Positions 201 through 52,949 of a DNA stretch of 64,000 nt are shown here, one piece after another (positions within the stretch are counted from its first letter, which is position 1; each line of letters opens with the position of its first letter). A program made the position numbers and the translations under genes. Origin of the DNA: Patescibacteria group bacterium (GTDB taxonomy: Bacteria > Patescibacteriota > Patescibacteriia > UBA9934). The notes under the pieces are model-generated. The model saw nothing but the letters and a program-made list of their open reading frames with translations. It did not search any database and was not told where the DNA came from. The stretch is taken from the NCBI GenBank assembly GCA_018062825.1, contig JAGORL010000002.1, forward strand, positions 1,629 to 65,628. Direction: 5' to 3'.

Positions 201-308
201 CCAAAACCCCCCACCTCACCTCCGGCCCCAACGTAGTCCGGCTCTGCCGGACGAAGTGGACCTACTCCCTATCCCCTAACCCCTATACCCTATTCCCTAA
301 TCCCTCCC
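201..308 (-). repeat. composite intergenic repeat: conserved hairpin module (227-269) plus C-rich CCCTAA/CCCTAT tract (264-308), G-rich on the sense strand
   Basis: A related copy lies at 38243-38348. The hairpin arm GTCCGGCTCTGCCGGAC differs from GTCCTCAAGGAC in the second copy but keeps its pairing. The 13-mer CCGGCTCTGCCGG recurs at 24594-24606. Confidence 0.6.
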
Positions 309-1074
309 ACATCGCATCAAAGATCATTTCTTGCGTTGACGAAATTGCCTCGTCATCAATCACCGCCCCAAACAACCTGCCATCACTCCCAGCGGAAATG
401 TAGGCCGTCTTCTTGCCGTACATCAGAATGTACGCCGACGAACTTGCACTCGTTGAAAGCCAACGTCGTTCATCAAGGCCATGCTCCGCTCCCCCTGGCC
501 CAATTGCAATCGCCCGTACATGCACCTTGCGTTTTACACGCAAAGCCGTGTAATTCGGCCACGCTTGAGCAATGAGTTCACGAACTTCGGCAGACGAGTA
601 CACGCGATACACGCGCTCAGGCAACAATTCGGCAGTCGAAAGTACATCGTTTAAGATGTCACGAATACCAGCATCGCCTTCGTAGTAGCGCACCGCCGCT
701 CTATGCATCGCAGAGCCGGAAAGTGCTCGCAGCGCCGGAATTGCCGTATCGATCGCTAGTTGCGCCTCTTTAAGCGCCATCTCTTTACGAATGGCGAGTG
801 TACGCAGCTTCTGAGGATCTTCCGCTGTAAAGTACCGATGCGACTTAGCATCAACGTAACTCACCACCCCGGAATCAAGCAGGCGCTTTAAAGCGTCATA
901 CGTCGTACCACGGTTGTAGCCAACCTCCTCAGCGATTCGACGCAGTGGAGCGCTTCCTAGCCGCAACAGGGCAACGTAGATGGCTAAATCCTTCTCAGTT
1001 AAACCAAGAAGGGTTAACGACTGCTTGGAAACTATAGGTGTGGACGACATAGTATGACAAAAATATTCCGACAC
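283..1074 (-). CDS. TrmB-family transcriptional regulator
   Basis: N-terminal winged HTH (LTEKDLAIYVALLRLGSAPLRRIAEEVGYNRGTTYDALKRLLDSGVV) with a C-terminal TrmB-like domain. The last codons GNRV-stop are encoded by the G-rich repeat. Confidence 0.7.
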   Translation of the reverse strand: MSEYFCHTMSSTPIVSKQSLTLLGLTEKDLAIYVALLRLGSAPLRRIAEEVGYNRGTTYDALKRLLDSGVVSYVDAKSHRYFTAEDPQKLRTLAIRKEMALKEAQLAIDTAIPALRALSGSAMHRAAVRYYEGDAGIRDILNDVLSTAELLPERVYRVYSSAEVRELIAQAWPNYTALRVKRKVHVRAIAIGPGGAEHGLDERRWLSTSASSSAYILMYGKKTAYISAGSDGRLFGAVIDDEAISSTQEMIFDAMWEGLGNRV

Positions 1075-1189
1075 TTCAGTGAATATGTCAAAAGTACCCT
1101 TATTTCATTAGCTAAAACGAATAGTTATTTTGTCTGGATTCAGCCGGCATTTTAGTAAGCATCAGCCAAAATCTCTATACCGGCTAAAA

Positions 1190-1218
1190 TTGACGTCCTT
1201 TTTTGAAAAAGCTATCAT
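1190..1218 (+). promoter_or_regulatory. sigma70-like promoter for tRNA-Gln (TTGACG-17nt-TATCAT)
   Basis: Read directly; the -10 element ends 11 nt before the tRNA 5' end. Confidence 0.5.
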
Positions 1219-1229
1219 GTCGGCGCCGA

Positions 1230-1303
1230 TCCGAGATCGTCTAACGGCAGGACAGAGGACTCTGAATCCTCTAATCATGGTTCGAATCCATGTCTCGGAA
1301 CCA
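1230..1303 (+). tRNA. tRNA-Gln (anticodon CUG)
   Basis: Manual cloverleaf: acceptor TCCGAGA/TCTCGGA, anticodon stem GAGGA/TCCTC, loop CTCTGAA, T-arm CATGG-TTCGAAT-CCATG, discriminator A, CCA encoded. Confidence 0.85.
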
Positions 1304-1307
1304 AAAT

Positions 1308-1335
1308 AAGACCACCTTCGGGTGGTCTTATTTTG
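1308..1335 (+). terminator. rho-independent terminator (AAGACCACC-TTCG-GGTGGTCTT + ATTTTG)
   Basis: Perfect 9-bp stem with a tetraloop and a U-tract immediately after the tRNA. Confidence 0.8.
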
Positions 1336-1473
1336 TCCTGAGCATGACATCATTCGTCATGCGAAGGACCCGTCACGACCTGTTCCTACAAGACCGGGAC
1401 AGGGGGTGACCAAGAAAACCCTCCTCCCTTCATTGGGTGGCGGGTTTTCGATTTATTGGATAAAATTTAGAAT

Positions 1474-2202
1474 ATGCTCCCAGTTCCGGAAGAATCTCGT
1501 GAAAAAGTCTATTGCCTTGAGGACCCGAGATGGTTTGCACCTATTAATGTCATTTCGCATTACAGTAGCCATCTCGATTCCTTGCCGCGCGAACAGAAGA
1601 AAACCAAAGCTTTTCGTAAAGCATATGAACTGTTTCTTGGTGCGATTATGCTGTTGGGCATTCAAGAAGTAGAGAATGACGTGTACTGGATACAGCCAGT
1701 TTCAGATGAGGAGCAATCTCCAGATGTTCGCACCGGTCGACAAGTACCAGTGAATAACGGTCACGCCCCAGATTTTGAAAGGCAGGATATCGAGGTTGTT
1801 GCATTCATTCCTAAACCTGGCGAGAATCTATCCGAATTTCTTCAACGTACAAAACTGTCTGGAAACAAATCCTACGACTCGAAAACAACCATCTTGTGTC
1901 ACATCCAGACAGGCTCACCCGTTCCGAAAATCACTATTACAGATGAGTTAAGAAAAACAAAAGCTGTTTGCCCGGTTCTTGTATTGGGTCGCACTCACCC
2001 GACGGACCATCAATATCTCTTACTTCAAGTATCCCCAAATTATAAAATTATTGCTCAATACGATGCTAAGGCATTATTGTTAAAACAGGCTCATCAAGGA
2101 TCACTAAACCTTCGGCGAGGTTCAAAACCAGATAATGAGCATCGTCCGAACGATAAGCACTATCCCTTTGAATCCATGGGTTTCACATGTTCTTTGATTT
2201 AG
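1474..2202 (+). CDS. hypothetical protein (AT-rich island)
   Basis: 242-aa ORF in the tRNA-adjacent AT-rich segment; no recognisable motif. Confidence 0.45.
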   Translation: MLPVPEESREKVYCLEDPRWFAPINVISHYSSHLDSLPREQKKTKAFRKAYELFLGAIMLLGIQEVENDVYWIQPVSDEEQSPDVRTGRQVPVNNGHAPDFERQDIEVVAFIPKPGENLSEFLQRTKLSGNKSYDSKTTILCHIQTGSPVPKITITDELRKTKAVCPVLVLGRTHPTDHQYLLLQVSPNYKIIAQYDAKALLLKQAHQGSLNLRRGSKPDNEHRPNDKHYPFESMGFTCSLI

Positions 2203-2215
2203 AAGATAGTACATT

Positions 2216-2956
2216 ATGAGCAATCAACGCCCCAAGATTTCAGACCCCATCCGTCGAAAAATCCGCCAACGTTGCGGCTTTGGTTGTGTATTGTGTGGCT
2301 ACCCTCTCTACGAGTATGACCATATCGAGGGCTGGGCGAATGTTAAGCGGCATCAGGAAGAAGACATCACTCTTTTATGTGTAACGCATCATACTGAGGT
2401 TACTCATAAACTATTGTCACGAGAGGCGGTGAAGGCAGCAAATAAGGATCCATATAATCATCGTCAGGGAGTGAGTAAGCCCTATTTTTTGAATTATGCT
2501 GGGGGCGATCTAGAGACGGAGATTGGTGGAAATATATTTCAGGCCGCAGTCCCGCTCATAATCGAGGATCAACCGATCATCGGATATCAGTCGGATGGAG
2601 AAAACCTCTTACTCTATGTAAAATTATTTGATAAAGACGGAAATCTTGTATTGGACATAGATGCGAACGAGCTCGTTTACTCAATTGACCGGTGGGATAT
2701 AGAGTTGGTTGCTAATCAGCTAACTATACGTGCAGATAAGGGTAAATTCTTAGTTCGAATGCGATTTATCGTGCCTCATAAACTCTACATTGATAGGGGT
2801 ATTATCCAGTATAAAAATCGGTCAGTGTTTATTCAAGATCAGCAGATGACTGTGGATAATGCTGCCATCTTGAGCGGCAGTCGTATTACAGCACCGGTAG
2901 GAATTGCGATTGGTACCTATACGCGTCCGTTCTCATGCGCTATTAGGATCAATTAA
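2216..2956 (+). CDS. HNH endonuclease-domain protein with unknown C-terminal domain
   Basis: N-terminal CGFGCVLCGYPLYEYDHIEGWANVKRHQEEDITLLCVTHHTEV fits the HNH pattern C-x-x-C ... DH ... N ... H-H. The stop TAA is followed by a G-rich tract. Confidence 0.65.
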   Translation: MSNQRPKISDPIRRKIRQRCGFGCVLCGYPLYEYDHIEGWANVKRHQEEDITLLCVTHHTEVTHKLLSREAVKAANKDPYNHRQGVSKPYFLNYAGGDLETEIGGNIFQAAVPLIIEDQPIIGYQSDGENLLLYVKLFDKDGNLVLDIDANELVYSIDRWDIELVANQLTIRADKGKFLVRMRFIVPHKLYIDRGIIQYKNRSVFIQDQQMTVDNAAILSGSRITAPVGIAIGTYTRPFSCAIRIN

Positions 2957-3103
2957 AGGGGGAACAGGGTTTAGGGGCATATAGAAAGGGGTCCCAAAGC
3001 CTCCCCAAAGGCTCAGTCCGTGACCGGGCCATAGAAAACAAGATAAAAATCAAAAACTGACTTTTCTTTTGTTCTTATAAGTATATGATATGTTGGAATC
3101 TAT

Positions 3104-3277
3104 ATGAAAAAATGTATTAAATGCGGACATGCTGAGATGCACACATCAGAACCAATCAGAATTCAAATCAACAGTGAATCAAATCCTTCAAAATTCTTAG
3201 ATATCAATAGATGCAATACTGAAGACTGTGAATGCATTTTAACGCTACAAGAAAAAAGAGACCTCGAAATTGATTAG
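3104..3277 (+). CDS. small zinc-ribbon protein (57 aa), hypothetical
   Basis: MKKCIKCGHAEMHTSEPIRIQINSESNPSKFLDINRCNTEDCECILTLQEKRDLEID, found by manual translation; it is below the ORF-track length cutoff. Confidence 0.3.
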   Translation: MKKCIKCGHAEMHTSEPIRIQINSESNPSKFLDINRCNTEDCECILTLQEKRDLEID

Positions 3278-3307
3278 GAAAATTTACTAAAATCACAACT
3301 AATATAT

Positions 3308-3709
3308 ATGGGATTCTGGATGAACTTTAGAAAAAAAATGTTATGCGAAACATTTTTTTCATCCTACTGCTCAAGAAAGGCTCACTACCCGATGGAAGAC
3401 GAAAATCAATGGTTGAAAGCAGCTATTGAGGAAATATTAACAGATTTTGTTAATCATGATCTCAAAATGATGCCTGAGTTGCTAAATCAAAATGCAGAAT
3501 CAATTTTAAGTCGGATAAAAAACACAGACCCTTACCGACAGGCAATAATTGAACTCTGGAGTTCCTATAAATTTAGTAAACAAATAAGTAAAAATGACTT
3601 TAGTCAAATGTTTAATAACTTTTACGAAAGCGAAAAAGAAATCGAACCACATTACTCAAAGGCCTATATTAAGTATAAAAATAAATTCCCTAAACTGATT
3701 AACTCTTAA
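3308..3709 (+). CDS. hypothetical protein (AT-rich island)
   Basis: 133-aa ORF. The true start may be the internal Met (MEDENQ...). Confidence 0.4.
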   Translation: MGFWMNFRKKMLCETFFSSYCSRKAHYPMEDENQWLKAAIEEILTDFVNHDLKMMPELLNQNAESILSRIKNTDPYRQAIIELWSSYKFSKQISKNDFSQMFNNFYESEKEIEPHYSKAYIKYKNKFPKLINS

Positions 3710-3763
3710 AGTATTGCATTGATCTCTCAGCAGCATGCAATGTAAAGAGGCAACATGCACAAG

Positions 3764-4397: not shown

Positions 4398-5699
4398 GTG
4401 GCTACCGAACAACCCCCAAAAACCCCAACAAAACCAACGATCAAACTCACGAAAGAACTTCGAGAACTCTTAGAGGTCTTAGAAAACACTTCAGAGAACG
4501 TTTTCCTAAGCGGTAAAGCCGGCACCGGAAAATCAACTTTCTTGAGATACTTTCGATCGATCACCAAAAAGAATGTAGTCGTCCTGGCGCCAACTGGCAT
4601 TGCCGCCGTTGGGATTCAAGGGCAAACAATTCACTCCTTTTTTAAATTTGGCATTGATACCACGCTCAATGATGTGGAGCCGGTTGCAAAAAGCGCTATC
4701 TATAAAAAGATTGATCTCCTGGTTATTGATGAAATCTCCATGGTGCGCTCGGATCTTTTTGATTGCATGGAAAAGTTCATGCGCTTAAATGGCAGAGAGA
4801 AGCACCTCCCCTTTGGTGGCGTGCAGCTACTTGTAATTGGAGACTTACATCAACTGCCACCGGTCGTAAAAAGAAATGGTGAAGAGAACATTTTTACCGA
4901 ACTCTACGAAGGGCCGCATTTCTTTGACGCCATGTCATACCGCAGTGCCGAATTTAAAAAGATGGAACTTACCCACGTTTTTCGTCAAAATCAAAAACAC
5001 TTCATCGAGGCGCTTGATGCGATTCGGATCAACAAGTACACCGCCAAGCACCTAAAGCTCATTAACGATCGAGTAGCTAAAAATAACGATCACGAGCTTG
5101 ATTTCACTATCTCAATTGTTACTACCAACAAAACCGCGGATGAGATCAACAAGAAAAAACTAGAAAGTTTGAGTACCAAAAAGAAGGTGTACAAAGGCGC
5201 TATTCAAGGCAAGTTCAAAGAAACACTCCCAACCGATGAAAGCCTTGAACTCAAATGCGGTTCGCAAGTCATGCTCATTAAAAACGACCCAGAGGGCCGC
5301 TTTGTAAATGGCGATATCGGTAAAGTGAAATCACTGACCGATAGTGAAGTAGAGGTTATTTTCGAAAGCGGCAAGTGCGTGAGCGTGAGTTCAGAAACCT
5401 GGAACAATATCAATTTCAAACTTGATTCCGCCAAAAGAAAGATTGAAACCGAAACCGTCGGATCATTCACACAAATTCCGATCAAACTCGCCTGGGCGAT
5501 CACCATTCACAAAGCTCAGGGCAAAACCTTTGATAAAGTACATATTGATATGGGCCGCGGCGCCTTTGATTCAGGGCAGACATACGTTGCTCTGAGTCGA
5601 GCACGAACACTCGAAGGTATAACATTAAAGCAACCAATTTATCCGAGAGATATTTATACAAATTCTAGAGTCGATGCTTTTATGAGCAATGACCGTTAG
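4398..5699 (+). CDS. Pif1/RecD-family ATP-dependent DNA helicase
   Basis: Walker A LSGKAGTGKST, FGGVQLLVIGDLHQLPPV, AITIHKAQGKTFDKV, YVALSRAR. Confidence 0.8.
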   Translation: MATEQPPKTPTKPTIKLTKELRELLEVLENTSENVFLSGKAGTGKSTFLRYFRSITKKNVVVLAPTGIAAVGIQGQTIHSFFKFGIDTTLNDVEPVAKSAIYKKIDLLVIDEISMVRSDLFDCMEKFMRLNGREKHLPFGGVQLLVIGDLHQLPPVVKRNGEENIFTELYEGPHFFDAMSYRSAEFKKMELTHVFRQNQKHFIEALDAIRINKYTAKHLKLINDRVAKNNDHELDFTISIVTTNKTADEINKKKLESLSTKKKVYKGAIQGKFKETLPTDESLELKCGSQVMLIKNDPEGRFVNGDIGKVKSLTDSEVEVIFESGKCVSVSSETWNNINFKLDSAKRKIETETVGSFTQIPIKLAWAITIHKAQGKTFDKVHIDMGRGAFDSGQTYVALSRARTLEGITLKQPIYPRDIYTNSRVDAFMSNDR

Positions 5700-6333
5700 C
5701 ACTATGGAAAAATCATACGGAAATATTGCCGCCGCTCTTATCTTCAACGGCGCCATGGTCGCACTTTTCATGCAAGCACTCTTAAGGCCAGAGGCTAATG
5801 CCGAATGGATCTTTCGAGGAGCATTTCTCATCTTCATCTTTGAGTTCTTAGCGATCTTTGCCCAACTCTGGCCTATTAAGCTCGTAGATGAATGGAAAAA
5901 GTCTGATGCTATTAAGAAAACCGGCGTCGTAGTGCAGGGCGTTATTATCTCCCTCTTTATTCTTGGCTTCACCTTTGGCTTTAGTTACCTTGCAGGCAAC
6001 GTAGCCGCCGGTGGCTACTTTGTGATCTCAATGATCGCTAAGTACGTAAGTCATGCAAAAAACGGCATGGACATGAAAGCGACCTATGCCGGTATTTTAA
6101 TCTTCATGGGAACTCTCATGGCAGTCTCGTTCACCTCCCCGGTGTGGCCAGCCATCTTTCCGTTCCCAGAGTCGGTACTCGCACAAAAAATCGACGGTTC
6201 AAGCGGTATGTTTGTCGATGCCCCGCAAGTGCAACTTGTCTGGGGAGCCCTCTACTTCCTCGGTCTCACGATGTACGAACTTAAGAAACCCATCATCGAC
6301 GCCTGGTTTACGAAGTATCAAGTAAAGAAGTAA
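5689..6333 (+). CDS. hypothetical multi-pass membrane protein
   Basis: Several hydrophobic segments. It overlaps the end of the helicase gene, so the two are probably co-transcribed; the start may be at 5704. Confidence 0.5.
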   Translation: MTVSTMEKSYGNIAAALIFNGAMVALFMQALLRPEANAEWIFRGAFLIFIFEFLAIFAQLWPIKLVDEWKKSDAIKKTGVVVQGVIISLFILGFTFGFSYLAGNVAAGGYFVISMIAKYVSHAKNGMDMKATYAGILIFMGTLMAVSFTSPVWPAIFPFPESVLAQKIDGSSGMFVDAPQVQLVWGALYFLGLTMYELKKPIIDAWFTKYQVKK

Positions 6334-6395: not shown

Positions 6396-8048
6396 CTACA
6401 CAACATTTCCTCCAAAAGCCCCCAAAAGCGCATCGACCGTATTTTCTACCTGTTCACGCTTTTGAAGTACCACCTCAAGGTGAACCGGGCGCATCACAAT
6501 CGTCTCAATGCCCGCACATACCATAAGAGACGTTTTATTATCCTTGAACTTCTCAGCGTGAATAGCGTACGGAACCTCCAAGATAATACGACCTCCGGAA
6601 ACATCCGCAACCGTTGCTGTCTTCATAAGAAGCGAAACAGCCACGCTCTTCTCAGCAACAACACTAATACAGCGCCCCCACTTATCCTTAACGTCATCAA
6701 GCGTAAGCGCAGGTAGTTCAGCGCCATCAGCCGAACTAACGACAGGCTGCCTTGGCGAGCTCTCTTCTACCAGCTTGGAGCCATTTGGCGCACTTGGCGG
6801 CAAGACGGCTCTATTGGTCGGCTTTGCAAATGACGGCATCGGGGCACGCGCAGGAGCGGCGGGAGCAGCTACAGCGGCTGGCGCAGGCTGCGGCGCACGA
6901 ACAACTGGAGCCACAACAGGTGCCGACGGTGTTGCAATAGGAGCAACTGCTGCAACCGGAACGACTGGATAACAAAACCGTACAAAAGCAATCTCAAGCG
7001 GCGCTTGCGGCAAATTACCAAGCGTGGACCTAAAACGCGCCTCTAAAACAAGATCGAGGAGCGATCCAATCTCAGCCGGTTTCAAAGCCTTACTCGCCTC
7101 AGTTTGCGAGCGTCCAAGTTCAGGATCAGCGGATAAAGACGCTTGATCGCCAAGAGAAATATAAAGGGTGTCACGCACCGCCTCCGCAAGTTCATCCGCT
7201 AAATGCTTACAATTACCACCAGATTCCGTGAACGCCAAAAGCTCATTCATCGCTCCATACGCCTCGCGCTTACTTAAAGCTCGCAAGATACCAGCGATCG
7301 TTCGGGCCGCACTTTGCGGTAACAACAAAGAGGCTGTGCTCATGCCAATATGCTGCTCACCGAGTGCTAACAGCTGACCAAATAAACTCTCCGCATCACG
7401 CAAACAACCCTCAGAGCTCTTCGCAATTGCGGCAGTAACGTCATCATCCACCGTCACCGCTTCAGAAGCAGCAATCTTCTGCAAGCGCTTCATGATCTCA
7501 ACCTCTGGAATACGACGAAAATCAAAACGCTGACAACGAGAAAGGATGGTAGCCGGAATTTTATGCAATTCCGTAGTCGCTAAAATAAAAACGGCATGCT
7601 TTGGCGGCTCCTCGAGTGTTTTCAAAAGGGCATTAAACGACGACGTTGATAGCATGTGTACCTCGTCGATGATGAAGACCTTGAATTTAGCGGTGGTTGG
7701 AGCAAACCGTACGTTCTCGATGATATTTTCACGAACATTATCAACACCGGTCTGCGAAGCGGCATCAACCTCCAAAATATCCATCGCTCGACCCTCCTGA
7801 AAGGCCACACACTGCGCACAAGCGCCACAAGGCTCAAACTCCCCCTGCCCCTTACCCTCACACTGCACTGACTTAGCCAAAAGTCGGGCGATCGTGGTTT
7901 TACCCACACCGCGCGGGCCAGCAAAAAGATAGGCCTGGGCGGTTTTTCCCGAGGCAATTTGATTAGTAACTGTACGAATAACATGCTCTTGTTCGCTAAC
8001 ATCAGCGAAACGTTGAGGTCGGTATTTTCGGTAGAGTGCTTCAGCCAT
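6396..8048 (-). CDS. dnaX: DNA polymerase III subunit gamma/tau
   Basis: YRPQRFADV, GPRGVGKTT, Zn-module CxxC..C, DEVHML, and a Pro/Ala-rich linker. Confidence 0.9.
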   Translation of the reverse strand: MAEALYRKYRPQRFADVSEQEHVIRTVTNQIASGKTAQAYLFAGPRGVGKTTIARLLAKSVQCEGKGQGEFEPCGACAQCVAFQEGRAMDILEVDAASQTGVDNVRENIIENVRFAPTTAKFKVFIIDEVHMLSTSSFNALLKTLEEPPKHAVFILATTELHKIPATILSRCQRFDFRRIPEVEIMKRLQKIAASEAVTVDDDVTAAIAKSSEGCLRDAESLFGQLLALGEQHIGMSTASLLLPQSAARTIAGILRALSKREAYGAMNELLAFTESGGNCKHLADELAEAVRDTLYISLGDQASLSADPELGRSQTEASKALKPAEIGSLLDLVLEARFRSTLGNLPQAPLEIAFVRFCYPVVPVAAVAPIATPSAPVVAPVVRAPQPAPAAVAAPAAPARAPMPSFAKPTNRAVLPPSAPNGSKLVEESSPRQPVVSSADGAELPALTLDDVKDKWGRCISVVAEKSVAVSLLMKTATVADVSGGRIILEVPYAIHAEKFKDNKTSLMVCAGIETIVMRPVHLEVVLQKREQVENTVDALLGAFGGNVV

Positions 8049-8103
8049 ATGGAAGGAGTGTAAAACATACGGCGGAATGGCGGAAGGGTAAAGGTGGGAA
8101 GGT

Positions 8104-8460
8104 TTAATGCTTGAAAATCTTTGAATAGCTAGCGATCATGCGTGATAATTTTCGTGAATCATCGAGGCCTTTAGTAAAAGTATCCTGAGAAAAATAACCC
8201 AAATCAAAACCTGCATAAAATAACGAACGAACTTCACCACACGAACCTTTTGCAATCAGTAAATAATTAGCCATGGTTTTAGTTGAATGCGATTCATGAC
8301 CTTCCGCTATATTGTTCATCACCGACAAAGAAGCACGACGCATTTGAGAACGAAAATCACGATCAATGACACTTTTTGTAGAGGAATAAACAAAAGTAAC
8401 AAGCTGCCTAGCCTCTTGCCAGATACGCAAATCTTCGAATGTCTTATATGCCTTATCCAT
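8104..8460 (-). CDS. four-helix-bundle protein (23S rRNA intervening-sequence protein family; Avd-like)
   Basis: 118 aa; RIWQEARQLVTFVY ... MNNIAEGHE ... GSCGEVRSL is characteristic of the TIGR02436-type family. Confidence 0.8.
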   Translation of the reverse strand: MDKAYKTFEDLRIWQEARQLVTFVYSSTKSVIDRDFRSQMRRASLSVMNNIAEGHESHSTKTMANYLLIAKGSCGEVRSLFYAGFDLGYFSQDTFTKGLDDSRKLSRMIASYSKIFKH

Positions 8461-8470
8461 ATCACTAACG

Positions 8471-8547
8471 ACCCCTTCTTGCCCTCCACCTTCACCCCTC
8501 CTCCCTTCACCCTTCCGCCCTTCCTCCTTTCCACCCTTCCGCCCCCA
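8471..8547 (-). repeat. G-rich (sense-strand) purine repeat tract, GGCGGAAGGG / GGAAAGG units
   Basis: Minus strand reads GGGGGCGGAAGGGTGGAAAGGAGGAAGGGCGGAAGGGTGAAGGGAGGAGGGGTGAAGG. It starts at the TAG stop of the upstream ATPase gene. Confidence 0.6.
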
Positions 8548-11088
8548 CTACCCCATCGGCGGCTTCACCGGTGGAGCCACTGGACGTGCCTTGTTCATAC
8601 CCGAACGCTCCATAATGTCTCGCTCTACGATCGATTTATCCTGACCGTACTGCAAACGAGAGATCTCCTTAAGAGCATCACCAACCCGGCGGTTACCTTT
8701 CTCAATCGGAATCGCCTTCATGGTAAACGGCTTAGCCTGGGCGTTCTCAATGATCATCTTCACGTTCCAGGTGTACATGTCGGTATTCATGAGGTCATAG
8801 CCGCTAAAAGTTGGAGCAAACACCTTCTCGAGTGTTTCAACATCTTCCGGACCAACACGCGCCACAAACATGTTTCCAACGTTACCCAAAACTGCATCAC
8901 GGATCTCACTCTTCCCATCTTTCACAAGCTGACCCATGTACTGGTGCGCCAAAATCATGTTCAAACGATACTTACGCGCCTCAGACAAAATCGTGGCAAT
9001 ACTTGGGGTAATAAAGTTCTGGAACTCGTCGATATACAGGTAAAAGTCATGGCGTTCACTCTCTGGAATATCAGCACGTGAAAAGGCTGCCATCTGCAAC
9101 TTAGCCACAAGAATCAAACCAAGAAGCGAAGCATTCACTTCACCGGTCTTACCCTTAGAAAGATTAACGAGCAAAATCTGCTTCTTATCCATGATTTCAC
9201 GGAAATTGAAAGCACTCTTTTGCTGACCAATAATGTTACGCATCATCTCGTTCTCCACGAAGCGACCAACCTTAGAAACCAAGTAACCCATCATTTCACT
9301 CTTATGGTAGTCGCTCGTTTTAGCCATCTCATCCTCCCAGAACGATCGAACAACCGGATCCTTTACCTTGGAAACCCATTCCTTCTGGAAAGCTTCATCA
9401 GCAATCATGCGTGGAATTTCTACAATCGTTCCTGGATTCTGCACATCAGCCATCAAGGTCAACATGTAGTTACGCATGTTGTGTTCAAACATCGGACCGA
9501 TCATTTCCGGTGGGAACAACATGTAGAAAATGCTAATCATTTCCTGCACCACGAAATCGCGCATCTCATCATTTGGTGATTCAAGCATGTTCAAACCCAT
9601 CGGACGCTCAAGGTCTGACGGATTGAAGTAAACAACGTCATCAATACGATTCTTTGGAATGAGCTCAAGAACGCCGTCAGCCAAATCTCCGTGCGGATCA
9701 ATAATACAAACACCTTTGCCGTTTCGAATATCCTGTACGGCCATGTTCTTAATAAACTCCGATTTACCGGAACCCGTTTTACCAATGATGTACATGTGAC
9801 GTCGGCGGTCACTATCTGTCATGTGAATATCAGTACGCACACCCCGATACTCGTTATAACCAACGAGGAGCCCTTCTTTAGGAATGTTTGTTGGAGCAGG
9901 CTGAGTACGCGCAAGCATCCAGCGAATGTTTGGTGTTTCAGTACTAGCAAGCGGCAAGTGCCACAAACTCGCTAACTCTTCAGTGTTAGCGATCAAACGG
10001 TGGCTGTCATCAAACAAGCGGAAAATAAACTCATCAATAATCTTACGCTTAGTGCGAGGAATGCTCTTTTCAAACGAATTGCCGTATTCGTAAATACTGT
10101 ACTGAGAAAAAGCCTGCAAAACGTTACCAAGATACGCTTGAGCCATGTCTGCGGTCTGCGCGGAAGCAACAATGCGAATATTCACCTCAAGCGCTGCCTT
10201 AGTCATCTTGTTCTCAATGCCCTCAAGCATCTTTGTTTCAGCAGCAGACAACCGGCGCTCTCGGCGTTTTGCAGCCTGCTTCTCAATATCTTCCTTAGAA
10301 GACATCCAGCCAGCTTTGGTAGCCCCCGTTTTCGCCTCCTCAAGTGTCATGCCCGCCTGCATGTTGCGCACGATCTTTGAACCAAATGCTCGCCAATCAC
10401 TTGCGGCCGGACGCACCAAAAACTGCACCGCTACGCCATCGGTCTCAAGCACTTTTGATAGTGCATTAGTAAGCGCGTTAACCGGATCACCCTCAATCTC
10501 TTTAAAGGTTTTAATCGGGAAAGCATTTTCACGCTTAAACTTCACGTGACCAGCCACGGTAACGCCGGTTGGTGAAAAAATATTGTAATCAACGATCTCC
10601 TCAAGGTAGGCATCGCTCCATTGTGCATGAAGTTGCTGTTCAAAAAATTCCTGATGCTTCTTCGGAACCGTAACGTAAAACGTAACCAACTTCTCATGTG
10701 CAACAAGTTCAAAAGCAAAAACATCATTCCTGCCTTTAAGCCAAGCATTAAAACCCTTCTCAGGCTTCAAGCCGCCAATCGCGGCATAGAGCGTTTCTGC
10801 AATAGCGATCTTCTCTTTAATAGTTGCCGGCGTATCATTTTGCCGCGCCTCGTCCTGATTTTTATAACGAGGAATAGTCACACGCAACGTCACCTGGGCA
10901 TTCTCACCACCTTTAGCACGCGCCGAACGCATAGCCCGAGCTCGCCAATAGAAAACAAAACCAACCAAGCATCCGACCACCGCCAAAACCGCAGCTAGGA
11001 AAAGAAAAAGGAGCGCTATTGGATCAAGACCAGCGCCGACCGTTGTTTCAAGATCCGTTCCTCCAAGGATTTGCAACATAATCACCAT
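8548..11088 (-). CDS. membrane-anchored FtsK/HerA/TraD(VirD4)-superfamily P-loop ATPase (DUF87/TraG-D_C-like)
   Basis: N-terminal TM segment; Walker A YIIGKTGSGKSEF; Walker B FYLYIDEFQNF; RKYRLNMILAHQYMGQL ... VLGNVGN motif typical of TrwB/TraD coupling-protein ATPases. Confidence 0.7.
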   Translation of the reverse strand: MVIMLQILGGTDLETTVGAGLDPIALLFLFLAAVLAVVGCLVGFVFYWRARAMRSARAKGGENAQVTLRVTIPRYKNQDEARQNDTPATIKEKIAIAETLYAAIGGLKPEKGFNAWLKGRNDVFAFELVAHEKLVTFYVTVPKKHQEFFEQQLHAQWSDAYLEEIVDYNIFSPTGVTVAGHVKFKRENAFPIKTFKEIEGDPVNALTNALSKVLETDGVAVQFLVRPAASDWRAFGSKIVRNMQAGMTLEEAKTGATKAGWMSSKEDIEKQAAKRRERRLSAAETKMLEGIENKMTKAALEVNIRIVASAQTADMAQAYLGNVLQAFSQYSIYEYGNSFEKSIPRTKRKIIDEFIFRLFDDSHRLIANTEELASLWHLPLASTETPNIRWMLARTQPAPTNIPKEGLLVGYNEYRGVRTDIHMTDSDRRRHMYIIGKTGSGKSEFIKNMAVQDIRNGKGVCIIDPHGDLADGVLELIPKNRIDDVVYFNPSDLERPMGLNMLESPNDEMRDFVVQEMISIFYMLFPPEMIGPMFEHNMRNYMLTLMADVQNPGTIVEIPRMIADEAFQKEWVSKVKDPVVRSFWEDEMAKTSDYHKSEMMGYLVSKVGRFVENEMMRNIIGQQKSAFNFREIMDKKQILLVNLSKGKTGEVNASLLGLILVAKLQMAAFSRADIPESERHDFYLYIDEFQNFITPSIATILSEARKYRLNMILAHQYMGQLVKDGKSEIRDAVLGNVGNMFVARVGPEDVETLEKVFAPTFSGYDLMNTDMYTWNVKMIIENAQAKPFTMKAIPIEKGNRRVGDALKEISRLQYGQDKSIVERDIMERSGMNKARPVAPPVKPPMG

Positions 11089-11600: not shown

Positions 11601-11634
11601 AACAAAAGAGCACGGACGTCAGGTCGCGTGCTCT
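11601..11634 (-). terminator. rho-independent terminator of cysS (AGAGCACG ... CGTGCTCT + TTTTG)
   Basis: 8-bp stem followed by a U-tract on the minus strand. Confidence 0.75.
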
Positions 11635-11649
11635 TTCTCACACTATCCC

Positions 11650-13038
11650 CTATACCCTATTCCCTTCCTTCACCCTCTGCCCCTCAGCTGTATCCTCAAC
11701 CACAAACCCAAGTTCGGCAATTGCATCACGCAATCTATCTGAAGCTGAAAAATCTTTGTTAGATCGAGCGGCGGCACGTTCATCAAGTAGTGCCTGCACA
11801 CTTGGCGGCACAAGTACCGGTCGCGCGACCACGTCATCAAGCGTCAAACCAAGCACTTCATCAAAAGCCAAAAGAGTAGCGGCTTTAGTCGAACTAACAA
11901 CATTTGCGTCACTAACAAGCTCCCACAAGACCGCCAAAGCCCCTGGCGTATCAAGGTCATCGCTAACGCGTGCCATAAAGCGATCAACGTACCCAGTATC
12001 AGGAGTACTTGGCTTTTCAAGCGTACGAGCAAGATCGATCAAGCGATTTAGTGCTTGATGAGAAGCGCCAAGCGCTTCAAACGTAAAGTTCTGCGGGGTT
12101 CGGTAATGCGCCTGCAAAATAAAGTAACGGAAATCGAACGGGGAAAAACCCTTAGCTTCAAGATCATCAAGAGAGTACGTATTTCCAAGCGATTTACTCA
12201 TCTTGCCGCCATCAACCAGTAAAAACTCATTGTGCATCCAAAGGTTTGCCTCCAAAACTCCACGAGCACCAAGGGTTTGCGCCAACTCATTCTCATGATG
12301 CACCGCAATGTGATCAATGCCACCCGTATGAATATCAAAAGGAACGCCTAAATACTTCTCCCCCATGGCTGAACACTCAATATGCCAACCCGGAAAACCC
12401 TTACCCCATGGCGACTCCCACTCCATATGACGCTTCTCGCCAGCCGGTGAAAACTTCCACAAGGCAAAGTCAGCGGCACTACGCTTACCATCGGTCTCAA
12501 CACGAGCTCCCCCTTCTTTCTCCTCCATCTTCTGCCCAGAAAGCTGGCCGTACTCCGGCAGCTTGGCAACATCAAAATAAATGCCGTCATCCGTGCGGTA
12601 CGTAAAACCATTCTTCTGAAGCTCTTCAACCATGGCAATCTGCTCAGCAATATGATCAGTAGCCTTAGGAATAACGGTTGGCATCAGATTGTTCACTCGA
12701 CGAATATCGGCAAGAAAAAGTTTAGTGTATTCGTCAGCAATATCCCACGCCGTTTTACCCTTCTTCTTGGAAGCAACCTCAAGCTTATCCTCGCCGCTTG
12801 ATGCGTCATCAGTTAAATGACCAACATCCGTAATATTCATGACCGCCGTCACCGCAAAACCATTCTTTTCTAGTGTACGTCGTAAAAGGTCAGCAAAAAT
12901 AAATGATCGCAAATTTCCGATGGAAGCTCGATCGTAAACCGTTGGTCCACAAGAATACATTCCGACCTTGCCCGGTACCTGAGGAGTAAAAATCTCTTTT
13001 TTGCGACCAAGGGTATTGAAAAATGCGATGACATGCAT
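11650..13038 (-). CDS. cysS: cysteine--tRNA ligase
   Basis: YSCGPTVYD, HIGH-like and KMSKS motifs. Start set at the internal Met (MHVIAFFNTLGRKKEIF). The C-terminal GNRV-stop is encoded by the G-rich repeat. Confidence 0.85.
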   Translation of the reverse strand: MHVIAFFNTLGRKKEIFTPQVPGKVGMYSCGPTVYDRASIGNLRSFIFADLLRRTLEKNGFAVTAVMNITDVGHLTDDASSGEDKLEVASKKKGKTAWDIADEYTKLFLADIRRVNNLMPTVIPKATDHIAEQIAMVEELQKNGFTYRTDDGIYFDVAKLPEYGQLSGQKMEEKEGGARVETDGKRSAADFALWKFSPAGEKRHMEWESPWGKGFPGWHIECSAMGEKYLGVPFDIHTGGIDHIAVHHENELAQTLGARGVLEANLWMHNEFLLVDGGKMSKSLGNTYSLDDLEAKGFSPFDFRYFILQAHYRTPQNFTFEALGASHQALNRLIDLARTLEKPSTPDTGYVDRFMARVSDDLDTPGALAVLWELVSDANVVSSTKAATLLAFDEVLGLTLDDVVARPVLVPPSVQALLDERAAARSNKDFSASDRLRDAIAELGFVVEDTAEGQRVKEGNRV

Positions 13039-13088
13039 AGATGTCAGCACAGTAACAGGGGCAACACACTTCATCAAATTCCCTGCCC

Positions 13089-13131
13089 ACAAAAAGAAGA
13101 CCCACCCTCGCCGTTTGGCAAAAGGTGGGTC
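13089..13131 (-). terminator. terminator of GC-rich cassette a1 (GACCCACC ... GGTGGGTC + UUCUUUUUG)
   Basis: Read directly. Confidence 0.6.
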
Positions 13132-15578: not shown

Positions 15579-15803
15579 TTATTCATCAGCCTCACCGGCA
15601 CCACAATCTTCACAGTCGTCACAACAACGATCAGTATCAGACTCTTCATCGCAACAATCACAACTTTCACCACAGCTCACCTTTCCGCCATTCCCCCCTT
15701 CCGCCATTCCGCCTTTCTTCACAGGCATAGCGCAAACGCCATCATGACAGGTGGCCTTTGGTGCTTCTTTCTTTGCCCCAAACACTGACGAAAGCCATGA
15801 CAT
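15579..15803 (-). CDS. Cys/Asp-rich microprotein (74 aa), hypothetical
   Basis: [74 protein letters not shown]. It lies 5 nt upstream of dnaJ. The middle part is encoded by a GGCGGAAGGG-type repeat. Confidence 0.45.
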
Positions 15804-20869: not shown

Positions 20870-20898
20870 TGGCCCTCCAGTAAGGCCAAGGTTAGCGG
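20870..20898 (-). promoter_or_regulatory. conserved cassette leader, copy b (TTGCGC-17-TAACCT; CGCTAACCTTGGCC; ACTGGAGGG-ATG)
   Basis: Aligned by eye with the other copies. Confidence 0.45.
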
Positions 20899-20931
20899 AA
20901 AAACAAAAAGAGCGCAAGACCGCGCTCTTTC
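20898..20931 (-). terminator. terminator of PP2C gene (AAAGAGCGC-GGTCTT-GCGCTCTTT + UUGUUUUU)
   Basis: Read directly. Confidence 0.75.
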
Positions 20932-29482: not shown

Positions 29483-29544
29483 GAATATGCCACAGCACCC
29501 TCTTTCTTTAACACTTTTAACTTTAATACTTTAACCCAACAATC

Positions 29545-31452
29545 CTACTGACAAACCGCACACTCTTCCGTGGAGACATCTCGCTTCTGAGATTCCATAG
29601 AGATGCTGTCAGCTTGGATTGGCGCTGAAGAGCGGAAGTAGTAAAGAGACTTCAGACCAAGCTTCCAAGCAAGCAAGTGAACCTCATGCATGTACTTTCC
29701 AGAAACCGGCGTCTGGAAGAAGAGGTTAAGCGACTGCGCTTGATCAATATACGGCTGACGATCAGCAGCTTGCTGAACAAGTTCGCGCATGTTCATCTCG
29801 TAACCGGTACGGAAGATCGCCTTTTCCTCTACAGTAAGGAATTCCAAATTCATAACACTGCCCTTATCAGCGATCACCTTTTTCCAAACATCGGAAGTAT
29901 TCTGTCCCTTTGTTTCCAAGAATGCTTCCAGGTGACGATTCTTTACAAGGAAGCTACCAGAAAGTGTCTTTTGCAAGTACGCATTTCCAGCAATTGGCTC
30001 AATAGCTGGCGTTGCCTCACCACACAAGAACGCTGTTGAAGCCGTTGGCTGAATAGAAGTGACGTAGCTATTACGCTGCGTACCGCCATCAAGCGGCAAA
30101 CCACGCTCTTCACCAAGCTTCACACTTGCCTTGCGCGCTGCCTCACCAAACTTAGTAAAGATTGCCTTGTTAATGTTGCGTGCTTGCAAACTCTCAAATG
30201 GCACACCCTTACTCATGAGGTAACCGTGATAACCCATGGTACCAAAACCGATGGAGCGTTCGCTCTTCACCGAGAAGATCGCTTTTTTGTACTCCTTCGG
30301 ATCAGCCATGTCGAGGAAGGTCTCGAGGTTGTTATCAAGACCCTTTACCGCTGCATAACAAATGTCATCGATCTGATCAGAAAACTCATCCCAACGCTCA
30401 AGGTTGATAGAAGCCAAGCAGCACACTGCCGTACGATCGTTATCGGTTGGCAAAACAATCTCCGTACACAAATTAGACTGACGAACCTGCAAACCTTTCT
30501 CTTTGTGATGCGGAGGAATGAACTTATTTACTGTATCAATGAACAAAAGATACGGCTCACCACTTTCAGCGCGCATGGAAAGAATCTTGCGCCACATGGT
30601 AACGGCATCAAGCTCCTTGGTGACCTTCTTGAAGTGTGGATCGATCAATTGGTACGTAGTGCCCTTCTCAACCGCTTCCATGAAGGCATCCGTAATAGTG
30701 ATACCAATGTTGATATTCAAAGTCTTACGATCTTGATCGCCACCGGTTGGCTTACGAACTTCCAAGAAGTCCTCAATATCTGGGTGATCAATACGCAAGT
30801 AGGCCGCTGCCGCACCACGACGAACACCATTACGAGCAATCGCGATCGTTTCCGAATCCATGATCTTCAAAAACGGAATAACGCCGGAAGACTTCAAGCC
30901 GGAAGAGATAAGCGGCGCATCCATACCGCGCAACTGCGACCAATCAGTACCGATACCACCACCGTACTTAGCAAGAAAAGCATTCTCACGGAAAACATCA
31001 AAGATACCACCAAGATCGTCTGGAACGGTGTTCAGGAAGCATGAAATCGGCAAACCCTTCTTGGTACCAATGTTCATGAGTGTTGGCGATGACGGCAAGA
31101 ACCAGTTCTTACTCATGATGTCATACAGGTACTGGGCATGCTGCTTGTCACCACGCGCCATACCGATCGCAATGCGCGCAAAAAACATCTGCGGATCCTC
31201 AATCACCTGACCAGCAACGTTACGCAAGGCATAACGATCACGGAAGTTCTCAAGGCCAAAGTAGGTAAAGTTGGTATTACGCTCTGGGGCAAGAACCAAA
31301 GACTGCTGAGCCTCTTTGTATTCCTGCATGTAATACTCAGAATCCCAACTGCCTTTGCCAGCTGTGCTCGCTAAAATTTCACCAAGTAAGATATTGCGCG
31401 CCGCCAAGAGATCGTTAGCACTCAAAGCGTCGATAACTGATGCGTAATCCAT
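29545..31452 (-). CDS. nrdA: ribonucleoside-diphosphate reductase alpha subunit (class I)
   Basis: Large-subunit core with a C-terminal CAVCQ redox pair. Confidence 0.9.
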   Translation of the reverse strand: MDYASVIDALSANDLLAARNILLGEILASTAGKGSWDSEYYMQEYKEAQQSLVLAPERNTNFTYFGLENFRDRYALRNVAGQVIEDPQMFFARIAIGMARGDKQHAQYLYDIMSKNWFLPSSPTLMNIGTKKGLPISCFLNTVPDDLGGIFDVFRENAFLAKYGGGIGTDWSQLRGMDAPLISSGLKSSGVIPFLKIMDSETIAIARNGVRRGAAAAYLRIDHPDIEDFLEVRKPTGGDQDRKTLNINIGITITDAFMEAVEKGTTYQLIDPHFKKVTKELDAVTMWRKILSMRAESGEPYLLFIDTVNKFIPPHHKEKGLQVRQSNLCTEIVLPTDNDRTAVCCLASINLERWDEFSDQIDDICYAAVKGLDNNLETFLDMADPKEYKKAIFSVKSERSIGFGTMGYHGYLMSKGVPFESLQARNINKAIFTKFGEAARKASVKLGEERGLPLDGGTQRNSYVTSIQPTASTAFLCGEATPAIEPIAGNAYLQKTLSGSFLVKNRHLEAFLETKGQNTSDVWKKVIADKGSVMNLEFLTVEEKAIFRTGYEMNMRELVQQAADRQPYIDQAQSLNLFFQTPVSGKYMHEVHLLAWKLGLKSLYYFRSSAPIQADSISMESQKRDVSTEECAVCQ

Positions 31453-31503
31453 AGCAGATGTACTCCTCTTTAATCTTTTAACTTTAATCTTTGCTCTGAA
31501 ACC
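31453..31503 (-). repeat. A-rich GATTAAAG repeat spacer between nrdB and nrdA, ending in RBS AGGAG
   Basis: Minus strand reads AAGATTAAAGTTAAAAGATTAAAGAGGAGTACATCTGCT-ATG. Confidence 0.5.
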
Positions 31504-32499
31504 TTAGGTCCAATCCTCAAGCACCGAACCCTTTGAATACTCCGTGGCACGCGCTTCAAAGAAGTTTGCATGCTCCTTAGCGTTCACCATGACATCAAGC
31601 CATTCAAGTGGATTGGTAACGTTGTACATGGCATCAAGCCCCAGGTCATGCAACCGGCGATCAGCAATGTAACGGATGTACTGCTTCACTTGCTCAGGCT
31701 GCAAACCAGGAACCGCACCCTTTGAGAAACAGGTATCAATGAAGGCATCCTCAAGTTTCACCATGTCGTTACAAGCCGCGTACAGCGTATTTTGAAACTC
31801 CTTGGTCCAGAGGTAACGATTCTCAGCGATCAAGTCACGGAAGAGGTGACAAACGCCCTTGCTGTGCAGCGATTCATCACGGATGCTCCATGTCACAATC
31901 TGACCTACACCCTTCATCTTTCCCATGCGTGGGAAGTTCATCAAAATGGCGAACGAGGAGAAAAGTGACACGCCCTCCATGAAACCTCCAAAGACTGCAA
32001 GGTTCATGGCCAGCTCTTCAACGTTATGTACGTTGAACTGCTGAACGTAATCGTACTTTGCCCTCATGGATTCATACTCCAGGAAAGCTGAGTATTCCTT
32101 CTCCGGAAGCCCGAGCGAATCATTCAAATAGGAATAGGCCCAAACGTGTATCGATTCCATGGCCGCAAAGGCCGACAGCATCATTTTAATTTCAGGTTTT
32201 GGAAAGGCCGGGATGAGGTGCTGGTTGTAATTATTATTCACCTCAATGTCTCCTTGGGTAAAAAAGCGGAGAATGTTGATGATGAGGTTTGATTCCTCAG
32301 GCGTGAGACGGAATCGATAGTCCGCAATATCACTTTCCATTGGCACCTCAGTTGGCAACCAATGCGCCTGATTTTGCTTCTGAAAATATTCGTAAAAATG
32401 TGGGTACTCAAACGGTCTGTAAAACGATCGGGATTGAAAGAGTGTTGATGGCTTGCCGGCAGCAGTCGAGACCATCTGTTGAATCGATGTTTGGTACAT
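31504..32499 (-). CDS. nrdB: ribonucleoside-diphosphate reductase beta subunit
   Basis: Ferritin-like di-iron protein (MESIHVWAYS ... EGVSLFSSF). Confidence 0.9.
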   Translation of the reverse strand: MYQTSIQQMVSTAAGKPSTLFQSRSFYRPFEYPHFYEYFQKQNQAHWLPTEVPMESDIADYRFRLTPEESNLIINILRFFTQGDIEVNNNYNQHLIPAFPKPEIKMMLSAFAAMESIHVWAYSYLNDSLGLPEKEYSAFLEYESMRAKYDYVQQFNVHNVEELAMNLAVFGGFMEGVSLFSSFAILMNFPRMGKMKGVGQIVTWSIRDESLHSKGVCHLFRDLIAENRYLWTKEFQNTLYAACNDMVKLEDAFIDTCFSKGAVPGLQPEQVKQYIRYIADRRLHDLGLDAMYNVTNPLEWLDVMVNAKEHANFFEARATEYSKGSVLEDWT

Positions 32500-38138: not shown

Positions 38139-38213
38139 ACGCTGTATATTGTAACAGATGAGAGGTGAGGATTCGGAGTTCGAGGTTCGGGGTTTTGAAC
38201 ATGTTAAATAAAA

Positions 38214-38242
38214 GCACCCGACTTTCATCGAGTGCTTTTTTT
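38214..38242 (-). terminator. terminator-like hairpin (GCACCCGA-CTTTCA-TCGAGTGC, 1 mismatch) with T-runs on both sides
   Basis: Follows the ugd gene and the repeat element on the minus strand. Confidence 0.55.
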
Positions 38243-38348
38243 AAACTCCCAACTCACCAGCCCCAACGTAGTCCTCAAGGACGAAGTGGAGCTACTCCCA
38301 ACTCTTAACTCTTAACTTTAATCTTTTCACTTTACTCTTTAATCTCCA
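38243..38348 (-). repeat. composite intergenic repeat, copy B: A-rich GATTAAAG/GTTAAGAG tract + conserved hairpin module (38261-38299)
   Basis: Minus strand reads GGAGATTAAAGAGTAAAGTGAAAAGATTAAAGTTAAGAGTTAAGAGTTGGGAGTAGCTCCACTTCGTCCTTGAGGACTACGTTGGGGCTGGTGAG. An inverted partial copy lies at 38162-38197. Confidence 0.6.
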
Positions 38349-39572: not shown

Positions 39573-39579
39573 ACCCTTT

Positions 39580-40167
39580 CTAGTTGCTAAATCGTCCTTC
39601 AGCGATACGATCACCAGACGGAGCAGAATTACCATCACGCGGCTCACGCATGATCACAACGCTCACATACGTATGCGGATCAGCAATCCCGTTCGCTGGA
39701 TTTGCAATAAAATCCAAAACCCAACTGCCATCAGCGCGTACAACAAGTTCACCCATATCACGCACATCAGCCAAACCATCTTTCAATAACCACACTTCAT
39801 ATGAAGCCTGCGTGGCATCAAGTGCCGGCAAATACGCAAGCACGCTAAAACGGGCCTCGCCACGTTCAAACACCCGCGTTACCCGACCGGTATCTTGACC
39901 ATCAAATGTTGAAAGAAGAGTAGCCTCATCACGCAACACCTCTCCCTCTTTTAACGTTAAAATCGGATTTTCAACCGCTAGCGTTGCCACTGGCACAACA
40001 GCTTGCGCTTCTAAGTCTCTAGCAGCCTGACGTTCTCGAGCCTGCGCACGAAAAGTCGAAACCCCGTAAAAGAACACCGCACCCGCAGCAATACACAACA
40101 AAACTATGGCCATTGGGCCTAAAACAGGTCGTTTCTTAGTGTATCGTCGGCGGGCGCGCCAGCTCAT
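39580..40167 (-). CDS. hypothetical membrane-anchored protein
   Basis: Basic N-terminus, one TM, 150-aa extracytoplasmic part. Confidence 0.45.
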   Translation of the reverse strand: MSWRARRRYTKKRPVLGPMAIVLLCIAAGAVFFYGVSTFRAQARERQAARDLEAQAVVPVATLAVENPILTLKEGEVLRDEATLLSTFDGQDTGRVTRVFERGEARFSVLAYLPALDATQASYEVWLLKDGLADVRDMGELVVRADGSWVLDFIANPANGIADPHTYVSVVIMREPRDGNSAPSGDRIAEGRFSN

Positions 40168-41378: not shown

Positions 41379-41432
41379 TGGAGATTAAAGATTAGAGTGG
41401 AAAGTGGAAAGAGTAAAGGAAAAACGTGGGGA
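41379..41432 (+). repeat. purine-rich GGAGATTAAAGATTAGAGTGGAAAGTGGAAAGAGTAAAGG tract (plus-strand orientation)
   Basis: Same repeat family as 38300-38348, but in the opposite orientation relative to the flanking genes. Confidence 0.45.
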
Positions 41433-52902: not shown

Positions 52903-52949
52903 AAAAGAGCACGCGGCCTCGGCCGGTGCTCTTTTCTGTATAAAAACGT

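Follow-up and report, generated by a model that had tools for sequence, protein, structure and literature searches.

A 64,000-nucleotide stretch of contig JAGORL010000002.1 from a Patescibacteria group bacterium (the window hereafter) contains two unrelated genes, one encoding a TrmB-like winged-helix regulator and one encoding CysS, whose proteins end in the same four residues, GNRV, followed by the same TAG stop codon. This raises the question of how two unrelated proteins came to share a C-terminal tail. We consider it probable that a G-rich heptanucleotide simple-sequence repeat located close to stop codons, (GGGNNTA)n, with its G-rich strand on the mRNA, gave rise to the tail as a by-product.

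Heptanucleotide arrays over the ends of two unrelated genes

The regulator gene (…WEGLGNRV) and cysS (…KEGNRV) have their final codons and TAG stop encoded by an identical 19-mer, AGGGAATAGGGTATAGGGG, on the minus strand at positions 280-298 and 11647-11665; approximately 0.03 such pairs are expected by chance. The 15-mer GGGAATAGGGTATAG is present in exactly two copies in the window, both on the minus strand (283-297 and 11650-11664). When up to two mismatches were allowed, five matches to this 15-mer were found in the window against 0.05 expected from shuffled sequences, and none of 100 shuffles reached five. The open reading frame (ORF) of the regulator (283-1074, minus strand) terminates in …FDAMWEGLGNRV-TAG and the ORF of CysS (11650-13092, minus strand) in …EGQRVKEGNRV-TAG. 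In the latter, the CysS_C domain recognized by Pfam stops at residue 473 of 480, seven residues ahead of the stop codon and just before the tail. The nearest named homologues of both proteins are from Candidatus Uhrbacteria and Patescibacteria group, and an exact look-up of the CysS protein matched contig JAHZTO010000049.1 of assembly GCA_020049755.1. The original prediction, which held that one DNA motif ends both genes and supplies their tails together with the TAG, was borne out by these exact repeats, as repeat DNA contains the terminal codons and TAG of both genes; the coordinates that it gave for the motif (283-300 and 11650-11668) were a few bases generous.

The shared motif is part of a series of tandem GGGNNTA units of 7 bases, six at the regulator gene (array A) and three at cysS (array B), and in both arrays the G-rich strand is the mRNA strand (Table 1). 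A Tandem Repeats Finder (TRF) analysis detected period 7 at 261-305 with 6.4 copies for array A and at 11643-11665 with 3.3 copies for array B. Array B resembles array A minus units 1 and 4, and both arrays contain stop codons in all three frames. Because each unit contains a TAG and seven is not a multiple of three, any frame that enters an array is closed within three units, and an array can therefore overlie a stop codon harmlessly. In both genes, translation runs through the same pair of units with the same phase (GGG-AAT-AGG-GTA-TAG), which results in the identical Asn-Arg-Val and stop. An alternative genetic code was rejected, as TGA, TAA and TAG all terminate genes here.

As we read the data, the gap from the stop codon to the next hairpin, which is either an intrinsic terminator or a palindrome resembling repetitive extragenic palindromic (REP) elements, is filled in this lineage of Patescibacteria by short arrays with a period of 7-8 bases. 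These arrays expand, contract and turn over quickly, probably by replication slippage and possibly with exchange between arrays. An array might then creep across the native stop codon and the last dispensable codons without harm, with its own TAG closing the frame, and entry into GGG-AAT-AGG-GTA-TAG would add Asn-Arg-Val and a TAG in place of the native end. The tail is most likely a neutral by-product of this process.

Native ends and variation between relatives

To determine whether the tails are native, the C-termini of about 120 TrmB-like and about 120 CysS homologues were compared, as the original prediction had suggested, and the native ends indeed differ from those in the window. The TrmB-like homologues end in …WESLG or similar and are mostly 251-252 aa long, compared to 255 aa here, and the CysS homologues end in …GQRV[RK]E.[RW]. 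NRV was absent from all of these approximately 240 homologues, so that no distant orthologue was found that lacks the repeat and carries the same tail. The length excess over the orthologues is 3 aa for the regulator and about 2 aa for CysS. At the DNA level, orthologues with approximately 68-70% protein identity have an ordinary stop codon and no array at either gene end: the array-free end of a TrmB orthologue (70% identity) reads TGG GAA TCA CTT GGT TGA and that of a CysS orthologue …GAA TTA CGC TAA. A repeat had been predicted to have inserted into, or replaced, both 3′ ends. This stands as far as the tail is non-native and the arrays are absent in relatives, but what is found is a tandem array and not a discrete insertion. 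The residues E-G-(L)-G had also been attributed to the repeat, which overstates its contribution: they correspond to native positions, already WESLG and [RK]EG in orthologues, and what is new is confined to N-R-V and the TAG. The end of cysS further shows an apparent 18-nt duplication (EGQRVK followed by EGNRV and stop) in which 13 of 18 bases match; orthologues already have [RK]EG at this position.

Within clusters of 90% identity, variants differ mainly in the tail, with GRE and GNRVGYRQ as ends of the regulator and KEGSSK and KEV as ends of CysS. One strain, L127, has 97.2% DNA identity to the window and its regulator is identical at 253 of 254 residues, yet this protein ends in GRE, and only GGGGTTA and GGGAGGGAGTA are retained in place of the six units of the window. 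Three further relatives with 84-85% DNA identity (L126, L128 and L129) carry other arrays or none, with the tails GNRVGYRQ, KEGSSK and KEV. The unit series of L126 and L128 differ from those of the window, that of L128 being GGCAGTA GTAAGTA GCGAGTA GGGAGTA, and L129 is without array and terminator after cysS, a 66-nt indel. The arrays are thus hypervariable and their turnover between close relatives is fast. In L129 (1540-1600), cysS ends in …KEV-TAG, as would be expected if the Trp codon in the …KEVW end of many orthologues had changed from TGG to TAG, and the promoter -10 box of the next gene lies within 10 nt of the stop codon with no terminator between them.

Arrays of a different unit were found in L005, a more distant relative with approximately 68% CysS identity. 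Here, CTTTAAT arrays are located at 6175-6209 and 8043-8074, over the stop codon of DnaK (…CCA CTT TAA) and after that of DnaJ, and the Leu-stop end of DnaK is supplied by the array. L005 also has a 25-base tandem repeat upstream of cysS (9831-9879).

Arrays, terminators and a REP-like palindrome

Arrays resembling A and B are present behind further genes of the window. Eight of the eleven period-7/8 arrays detected by TRF overlap a gene 3′ end or lie at most 26 nt from one, with intergenic DNA making up 9.8% of the window. Most arrays sit between a stop codon and a hairpin, an arrangement found at no fewer than seven sites. All four G-rich arrays, after the TrmB-like gene, ORF 2216-2956, the coupling-protein gene and cysS, are G-rich on the sense strand. 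The A/T-rich arrays, with AAAGATTA, AAAGTTA and AAGAGTT units, share the position after the stop codon with the G-rich ones. In silico, a G-quadruplex (G4) is predicted for the RNA of both array A and array B (-51.4 vs. -36.2 and -32.2 vs. -28.3 kcal/mol, respectively); array A contains seven G-tracts, with r(GGGAAUAGGGUAUAGGGGUUAGGGG) as candidate quadruplex RNA.

Table 1. Genes, arrays and hairpins in the window.
Feature	Position	Strand	Remarks
TrmB-like winged-helix regulator gene	283-1050	-	255 aa as annotated (MBP9827939.1); ends …WEGLGNRV; Pfam PF01978 (E = 3e-12), PF13412
Array A: GGGATTA GGGAATA GGGTATA GGGGTTA GGGGATA GGGAGTA	261-308	-	Covers last codons and TAG (283-285) of the TrmB-like gene
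REP-like imperfect palindrome GGGAGTAGGT-CCACTTCGTCC-GGCAGAGCC-GGACTACGTT-GGGGCC	210-269	-	Directly after array A; covariance model 54.6 bits
cysS	11650-13038	-	462 aa as annotated (MBP9827950.1); ends …GQRVKEGNRV; Pfam tRNA-synt_1e, DALR_2, CysS_C
Array B: GGGAATA GGGTATA GGGGATA	11643-11668	-	Covers last codons and TAG (11650-11652) of cysS
Terminator-like hairpin AAAGAGCACGCGACC-TGAC-GTCCGTGCTCTTTTG	11603-11637	-	Minimum free energy fold; directly 3′ of array B
Short G-rich array (GGGGGAACA GGGTTTA GGGG…)	2957-2990	+	Begins one base past the TAA of ORF 2216-2956
Purine-only G-tract array, GGAAGGGYG-type units, period 7-8	8470-8550	-	Begins at the TAG of the type IV coupling-protein-like gene 8548-11088
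A/T-rich 8-base array, GTTAAAGT-type units	29506-29544	-	Between the stop of gene 29545-31452 and a terminator hairpin
A/T-rich array, AAAGATTA-type units	31465-31503	-	Between the stop of gene 31504-32499 and the following gene's ribosome-binding site
Second module: A/G-rich 7-base array (38293-38348; counted with the A/T-rich arrays), palindrome (38245-38299), terminator hairpin (~38205-38240)	38245-38348	-	After the stop of gene 38349-39647
Array GGGGTAG GAAGTAA AAAGTAG (56312-56340) and terminator hairpin (56341-56375)	56312-56375	+	After the stop of ORF 55823-56311

A scan of representative genomes for four GGGNNTA units yielded at least 120 loci, and cyanobacteria, planctomycetes, acidobacteria, proteobacteria and candidate-phyla bacteria were among the matches listed, many of the arrays being cyanobacterial; the genome from which the window derives was not among these matches. 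Of 134 arrays among the matches listed, 45 lie at a gene 3′ end with the G-rich strand as sense strand against 4 with the C-rich strand, counts that rest on crude ORF maps and are inflated in favour of a 3′ position, since stop-rich arrays end any ORF that reaches them. Another 15 lie just upstream of starts on the antisense strand. The bias of 45 to 4 is the published pattern of stop-proximal G-rich repeats.

Among the hairpins, the terminators after cysS and after ORF 55823-56311 have a near-identical stem, GCACGCGACC…GTCCGTGC, and both are preceded by arrays. Terminator-like hairpins with the common motif AAGAGCAC…GTGCTCTTTT were observed at 11603-11637 (minus strand), 56341-56375 (plus strand), 52900-52945 and 20880-20915 (both minus strand), as well as in L128 (~1660-1695) and L129 (~4665-4700), which suggests a repeated family of terminators. 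Some other observations concern the surroundings of the arrays. An array of (TGGCGGAA)n with 4.4 copies on the minus strand (15683-15717), related to the purine-rich array at 8470-8550, lies among small hypothetical ORFs upstream of dnaJ. A gene for a 23S-rRNA-intervening-sequence protein (four-helix bundle; 8104-8460, minus strand) is located between the coupling-protein-like gene and dnaX; L129 and L005 have no such gene at this place. The region 1100-3750, a stretch of lower complexity with a tRNA gene (1230-1300, plus strand) and three ORFs without Pfam domains (1474-2202, 2216-2956 and 3308-3709), may be a small island beside the tRNA; ORF 2216-2956 has a Cys/His pattern that is HNH-like in appearance.

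The hairpin that follows array A is a REP-like palindrome of the form CCACTTCGTCC-[variable stem-loop]-GGACTACGTT with complementary flanks NNNCC/GGNNN, corresponding to a pattern of approximately 45 nt, (NNNCC)ACTTC-GTCC[stem-loop]GGAC-TACGTTR(GGNNN). The second copy in the window (38245-38299, minus strand) scores 40.2 bits with the covariance model. At the site of array A, the palindrome is present in L127 (896-934) and absent in L126, and in 120 kb of related sequence the covariance model matched no site other than the L127 copy and the two copies of the window. A metagenome scan with the exact pattern yielded 71 loci (L130-L200), corresponding to 51 distinct copies after removal of duplicates and of false positives in coding sequences. 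As the search pattern prescribed the 21-base core, the conservation of the core is a property of the search and not an independent measurement. Copies with the exact core occur about twice per metagenome contig of 43-194 kb, compared to two in the 64-kb window, and are found in many different organisms and gene contexts. In the 51 copies both helices show compensatory changes, with 86% of cells paired and a covariation score of 0.238 against 0.084 in shuffles (none of 500 reached the observed value) and at most 0.054 with slid partners. G·U and A·C combinations in the helices number 19 and 24, respectively; as G·U is not in excess over A·C, this comparison is equally compatible with an RNA and a DNA hairpin. 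A self-cleaving ribozyme and a bulge-helix-bulge splice site were rejected as identities of the palindrome by sequence inspection and the silence of Rfam.

Several copies of the palindrome start at the 3′ CCA of tmRNA genes and others lie near tRNA genes. About ten copies are located in frame and in sense orientation, in all three frames, inside real genes, including recR and ORFs that by eye resemble QueA, Fic, metallo-beta-lactamase and M16 peptidase. In recR, the palindrome corresponds to an 18-residue segment (136-153) where the solved RecR chain 3vdp has one residue, a net insertion of approximately 17 residues. The predicted peptide of such in-frame copies reads HFVP…GTTLG or similar. 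The left arm carries the tag CGTC (CTTCGTCC), and CTAC (GTAG on the other strand) lies beside the right arm (GGACTACGTT); the placement of these tags relative to the stems is unlike that in published diagrams. In Rfam, 14 palindrome-bearing loci searched at E ≤ 1 gave no match at the palindrome, only to neighbouring tmRNA, tRNA, 5S and riboswitch sequences, and with gathering thresholds two tRNAs were the sole matches in the window. A Pfam analysis of 150 ORFs within 3 kb of palindromes showed unrelated housekeeping families and no Y1/RAYT transposase among the 25 most frequent families listed, where a family represented by a single ORF would not show. In the literature, the palindrome arms as strings matched only unrelated primers. 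It is doubtful that the arrays and the hairpins following them form a spreading gene-end module in Patescibacteria, with the palindrome as a new widespread REP-like element or class of structured RNA.

Alternative explanations, precedents and significance

Several observations weigh against a stop-proximal G-rich repeat as the full explanation of the tail. The arrays in the window are not all G-rich and do not all close three frames, and the array at 41385-41430 (CTTTCCA and CTTTAAT units) is oppositely oriented. Arrays A and B share the order of unit variants (AATA, TATA and then GATA after one skipped unit), which hints at copying between the loci and not at independent slippage. The loss of array and terminator after cysS as a single indel in L129 is cassette-like rather than microsatellite-like. 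In the regulator gene the array-like GGGAGGGATTAGGG also spans codons of the native-like E-G-L-G, so that the boundary between native sequence and repeat is not sharp. To these points are added the inflation of the orientation count and the limited sample, which consists of 64 kb of one genome and approximately 19 kb from close relatives.

It is possible, and is put forward tentatively, that the arrays themselves are selected RNA elements in the 3′ untranslated region, acting as a G-quadruplex, as a three-frame stop or spacer that shields the terminator hairpin from terminating or read-through ribosomes, or as a protein-binding purine tract, with the tail being incidental. Such a role, which is compatible with the repeat origin of the tail, would fit the sense orientation of the G-rich strand in the window and elsewhere, the recurring order of stop codon, array and hairpin, the G-quadruplexes predicted for A and B, and the formation of G4 in vitro by related heptamers, with a preference for four units (PMC4692102). 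However, the orthologous arrays of relatives are not G4-competent (GGCAGTA GTAAGTA GCGAGTA in L128) or are missing (L129), A/T-rich arrays hold the same position, and the published study of related repeats found no regulatory role (PMC4692102).

Insertion at both 3′ ends of a discrete mobile or copy-pasted gene-end cassette, consisting of an array and a terminator hairpin or REP-like palindrome, is essentially the event envisaged in the original prediction and appears unlikely. The same 19-mer and the same order of units at two loci 11 kb apart would be expected from such copying, and the joint absence of array and terminator in L129, the presence of the palindrome beside array A in the window and L127 and not in L126, and the stem common to the two array-preceded terminators point in the same direction. 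Against this, the number and sequence of units differ at every site and between strains, and neither fixed element ends nor target-site duplications were seen: the ends of the arrays differ at every site and no target duplication flanks A or B, which does not agree with a transposable element or miniature inverted-repeat transposable element. No transposase was seen with arrays A and B, no enrichment of transposase or RAYT genes was detected near palindrome copies among the families listed for the 150 flanking ORFs, and published G-rich heptamer repeats are generally not tied to mobile elements (PMC4692102).

A selected C-terminal peptide (a signal or degron) that the two proteins gained by convergence would explain the identical four-residue end on two unrelated proteins, but is highly improbable and was rejected, as the tail differs from strain to strain, including the strain with 97% DNA identity and every other relative, is absent from all homologues examined, and is identical at the DNA level, including untranslated bases past the stop codon. 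Chance similarity or an artefact of the metagenome-assembled genome, in which short repeats are error-prone, is just as improbable and was likewise rejected in view of the excess of matches over shuffles, the presence of the same protein sequences in NCBI and Logan assemblies, and the recurrence of related arrays at the same sites in other samples.

The original prediction regarded the shared tail as an unusual mode of C-terminal evolution, but there are precedents for it (PMC4692102; PMC3733652; PMC4679880). G-rich, G4-forming heptamer repeats of the types GGGNATC and GGGGA(C/T)T were described in Xanthomonas and Nostoc; they lie within 50 bp of stop codons or overlap them on the coding strand, are strongly non-coding, vary extensively in length and sequence between close relatives, and have no identified function (Rehm et al., 2015; PMC4692102). 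The arrays found here are similar in that A and B consist of a few head-to-tail 7-nt units with a G3-4 tract and overlap stop codons, the stop is where the arrays at 2957 and 8470-8550 begin, the coding strand is the G-rich strand, and the number and sequence of units vary between close relatives, from the far shorter array of L127 to the other arrays, or none, in L126, L128 and L129. They differ in that the units are GGGNNTA, each with a TAG, and represent a different sub-type, the units within an array are heterogeneous, and the host is a small-genome Patescibacteria represented by a metagenome-assembled genome. In addition, A/T-rich arrays with an equal period are found here in the equivalent position, and a hairpin typically comes after the arrays.

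The TAG that stops a flanking ORF is often provided by the terminus of a GTAG-type REP; most of these REPs are located directly 3′ of ORFs, and some are integrated in frame within genes, in many cases ones for DNA repair (Di Nocera et al., 2013; PMC3733652). The palindrome described here resembles GTAG/CGTC REPs in its compensatory stems and its in-frame copy in recR, and it has candidate tags, CGTC in one arm and, in the other arm, GTAG on the opposite strand. The NRV tail, however, comes from the heptamer array and not from the palindrome, and whereas classic REPs are mostly species- or genus-specific, the palindrome was recovered across many metagenomic organisms with its 21-base core fixed by the search pattern. 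TAACTGA heptamers of Beggiatoaceae, cyanobacteria and Bacteroidetes, present as 2-6 direct-repeat units, have three-frame stops in the forward direction, so that an ORF can overlap them only at its very end; 13 overlap the stop codon of the upstream gene, but most are located immediately 5′ of start codons, and they were proposed to act in translation (MacGregor, 2015; PMC4679880). The arrays found here differ from these in unit and position, often precede terminators, and share with them only the three-frame-stop logic.

Heterocystous cyanobacteria reportedly contain short tandemly repeated repetitive (STRR) heptamers, said to have been described by Mazel et al. in 1990 as tandem heptamers that lie between genes and contain G/C tracts. 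The classic STRR units (e.g., CCCCAGT) are unlike those found here and are said to have no defined specific link to stop codons. Rickettsia palindromic elements (RPE) are selfish DNA located in frame in protein-coding genes; RPE-1 is 100-150 bp long and restricted to Rickettsia. Like RPE, the palindrome found here occurs in frame in recR and other genes and adds a peptide segment; unlike RPE, it has a core of approximately 45 nt and comes from metagenome contigs of Patescibacteria type.

The shared tail is thus a GGGNNTA example of an already described class of stop-proximal heptamers, a finding that is real but fairly ordinary. The host range of this class, described in Xanthomonas and cyanobacteria, thereby comes to include a Patescibacteria with a reduced genome. 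The palindrome, with in-frame copies such as that in recR, may be a useful marker and may represent a new repeat family of candidate-phyla bacteria. That arrays are kept within the roughly 10% of the window that is intergenic points either to a role of the arrays at the 3′ ends of mRNAs or to a mutational bias that is strong. For annotation, the finding implies that in array-rich genomes a rapidly evolving repeat determines the stop codon and the last few residues of many proteins, and differences between strains in C-terminal residues (NRV, RE, NRVGYRQ and SSK) then need no functional explanation.

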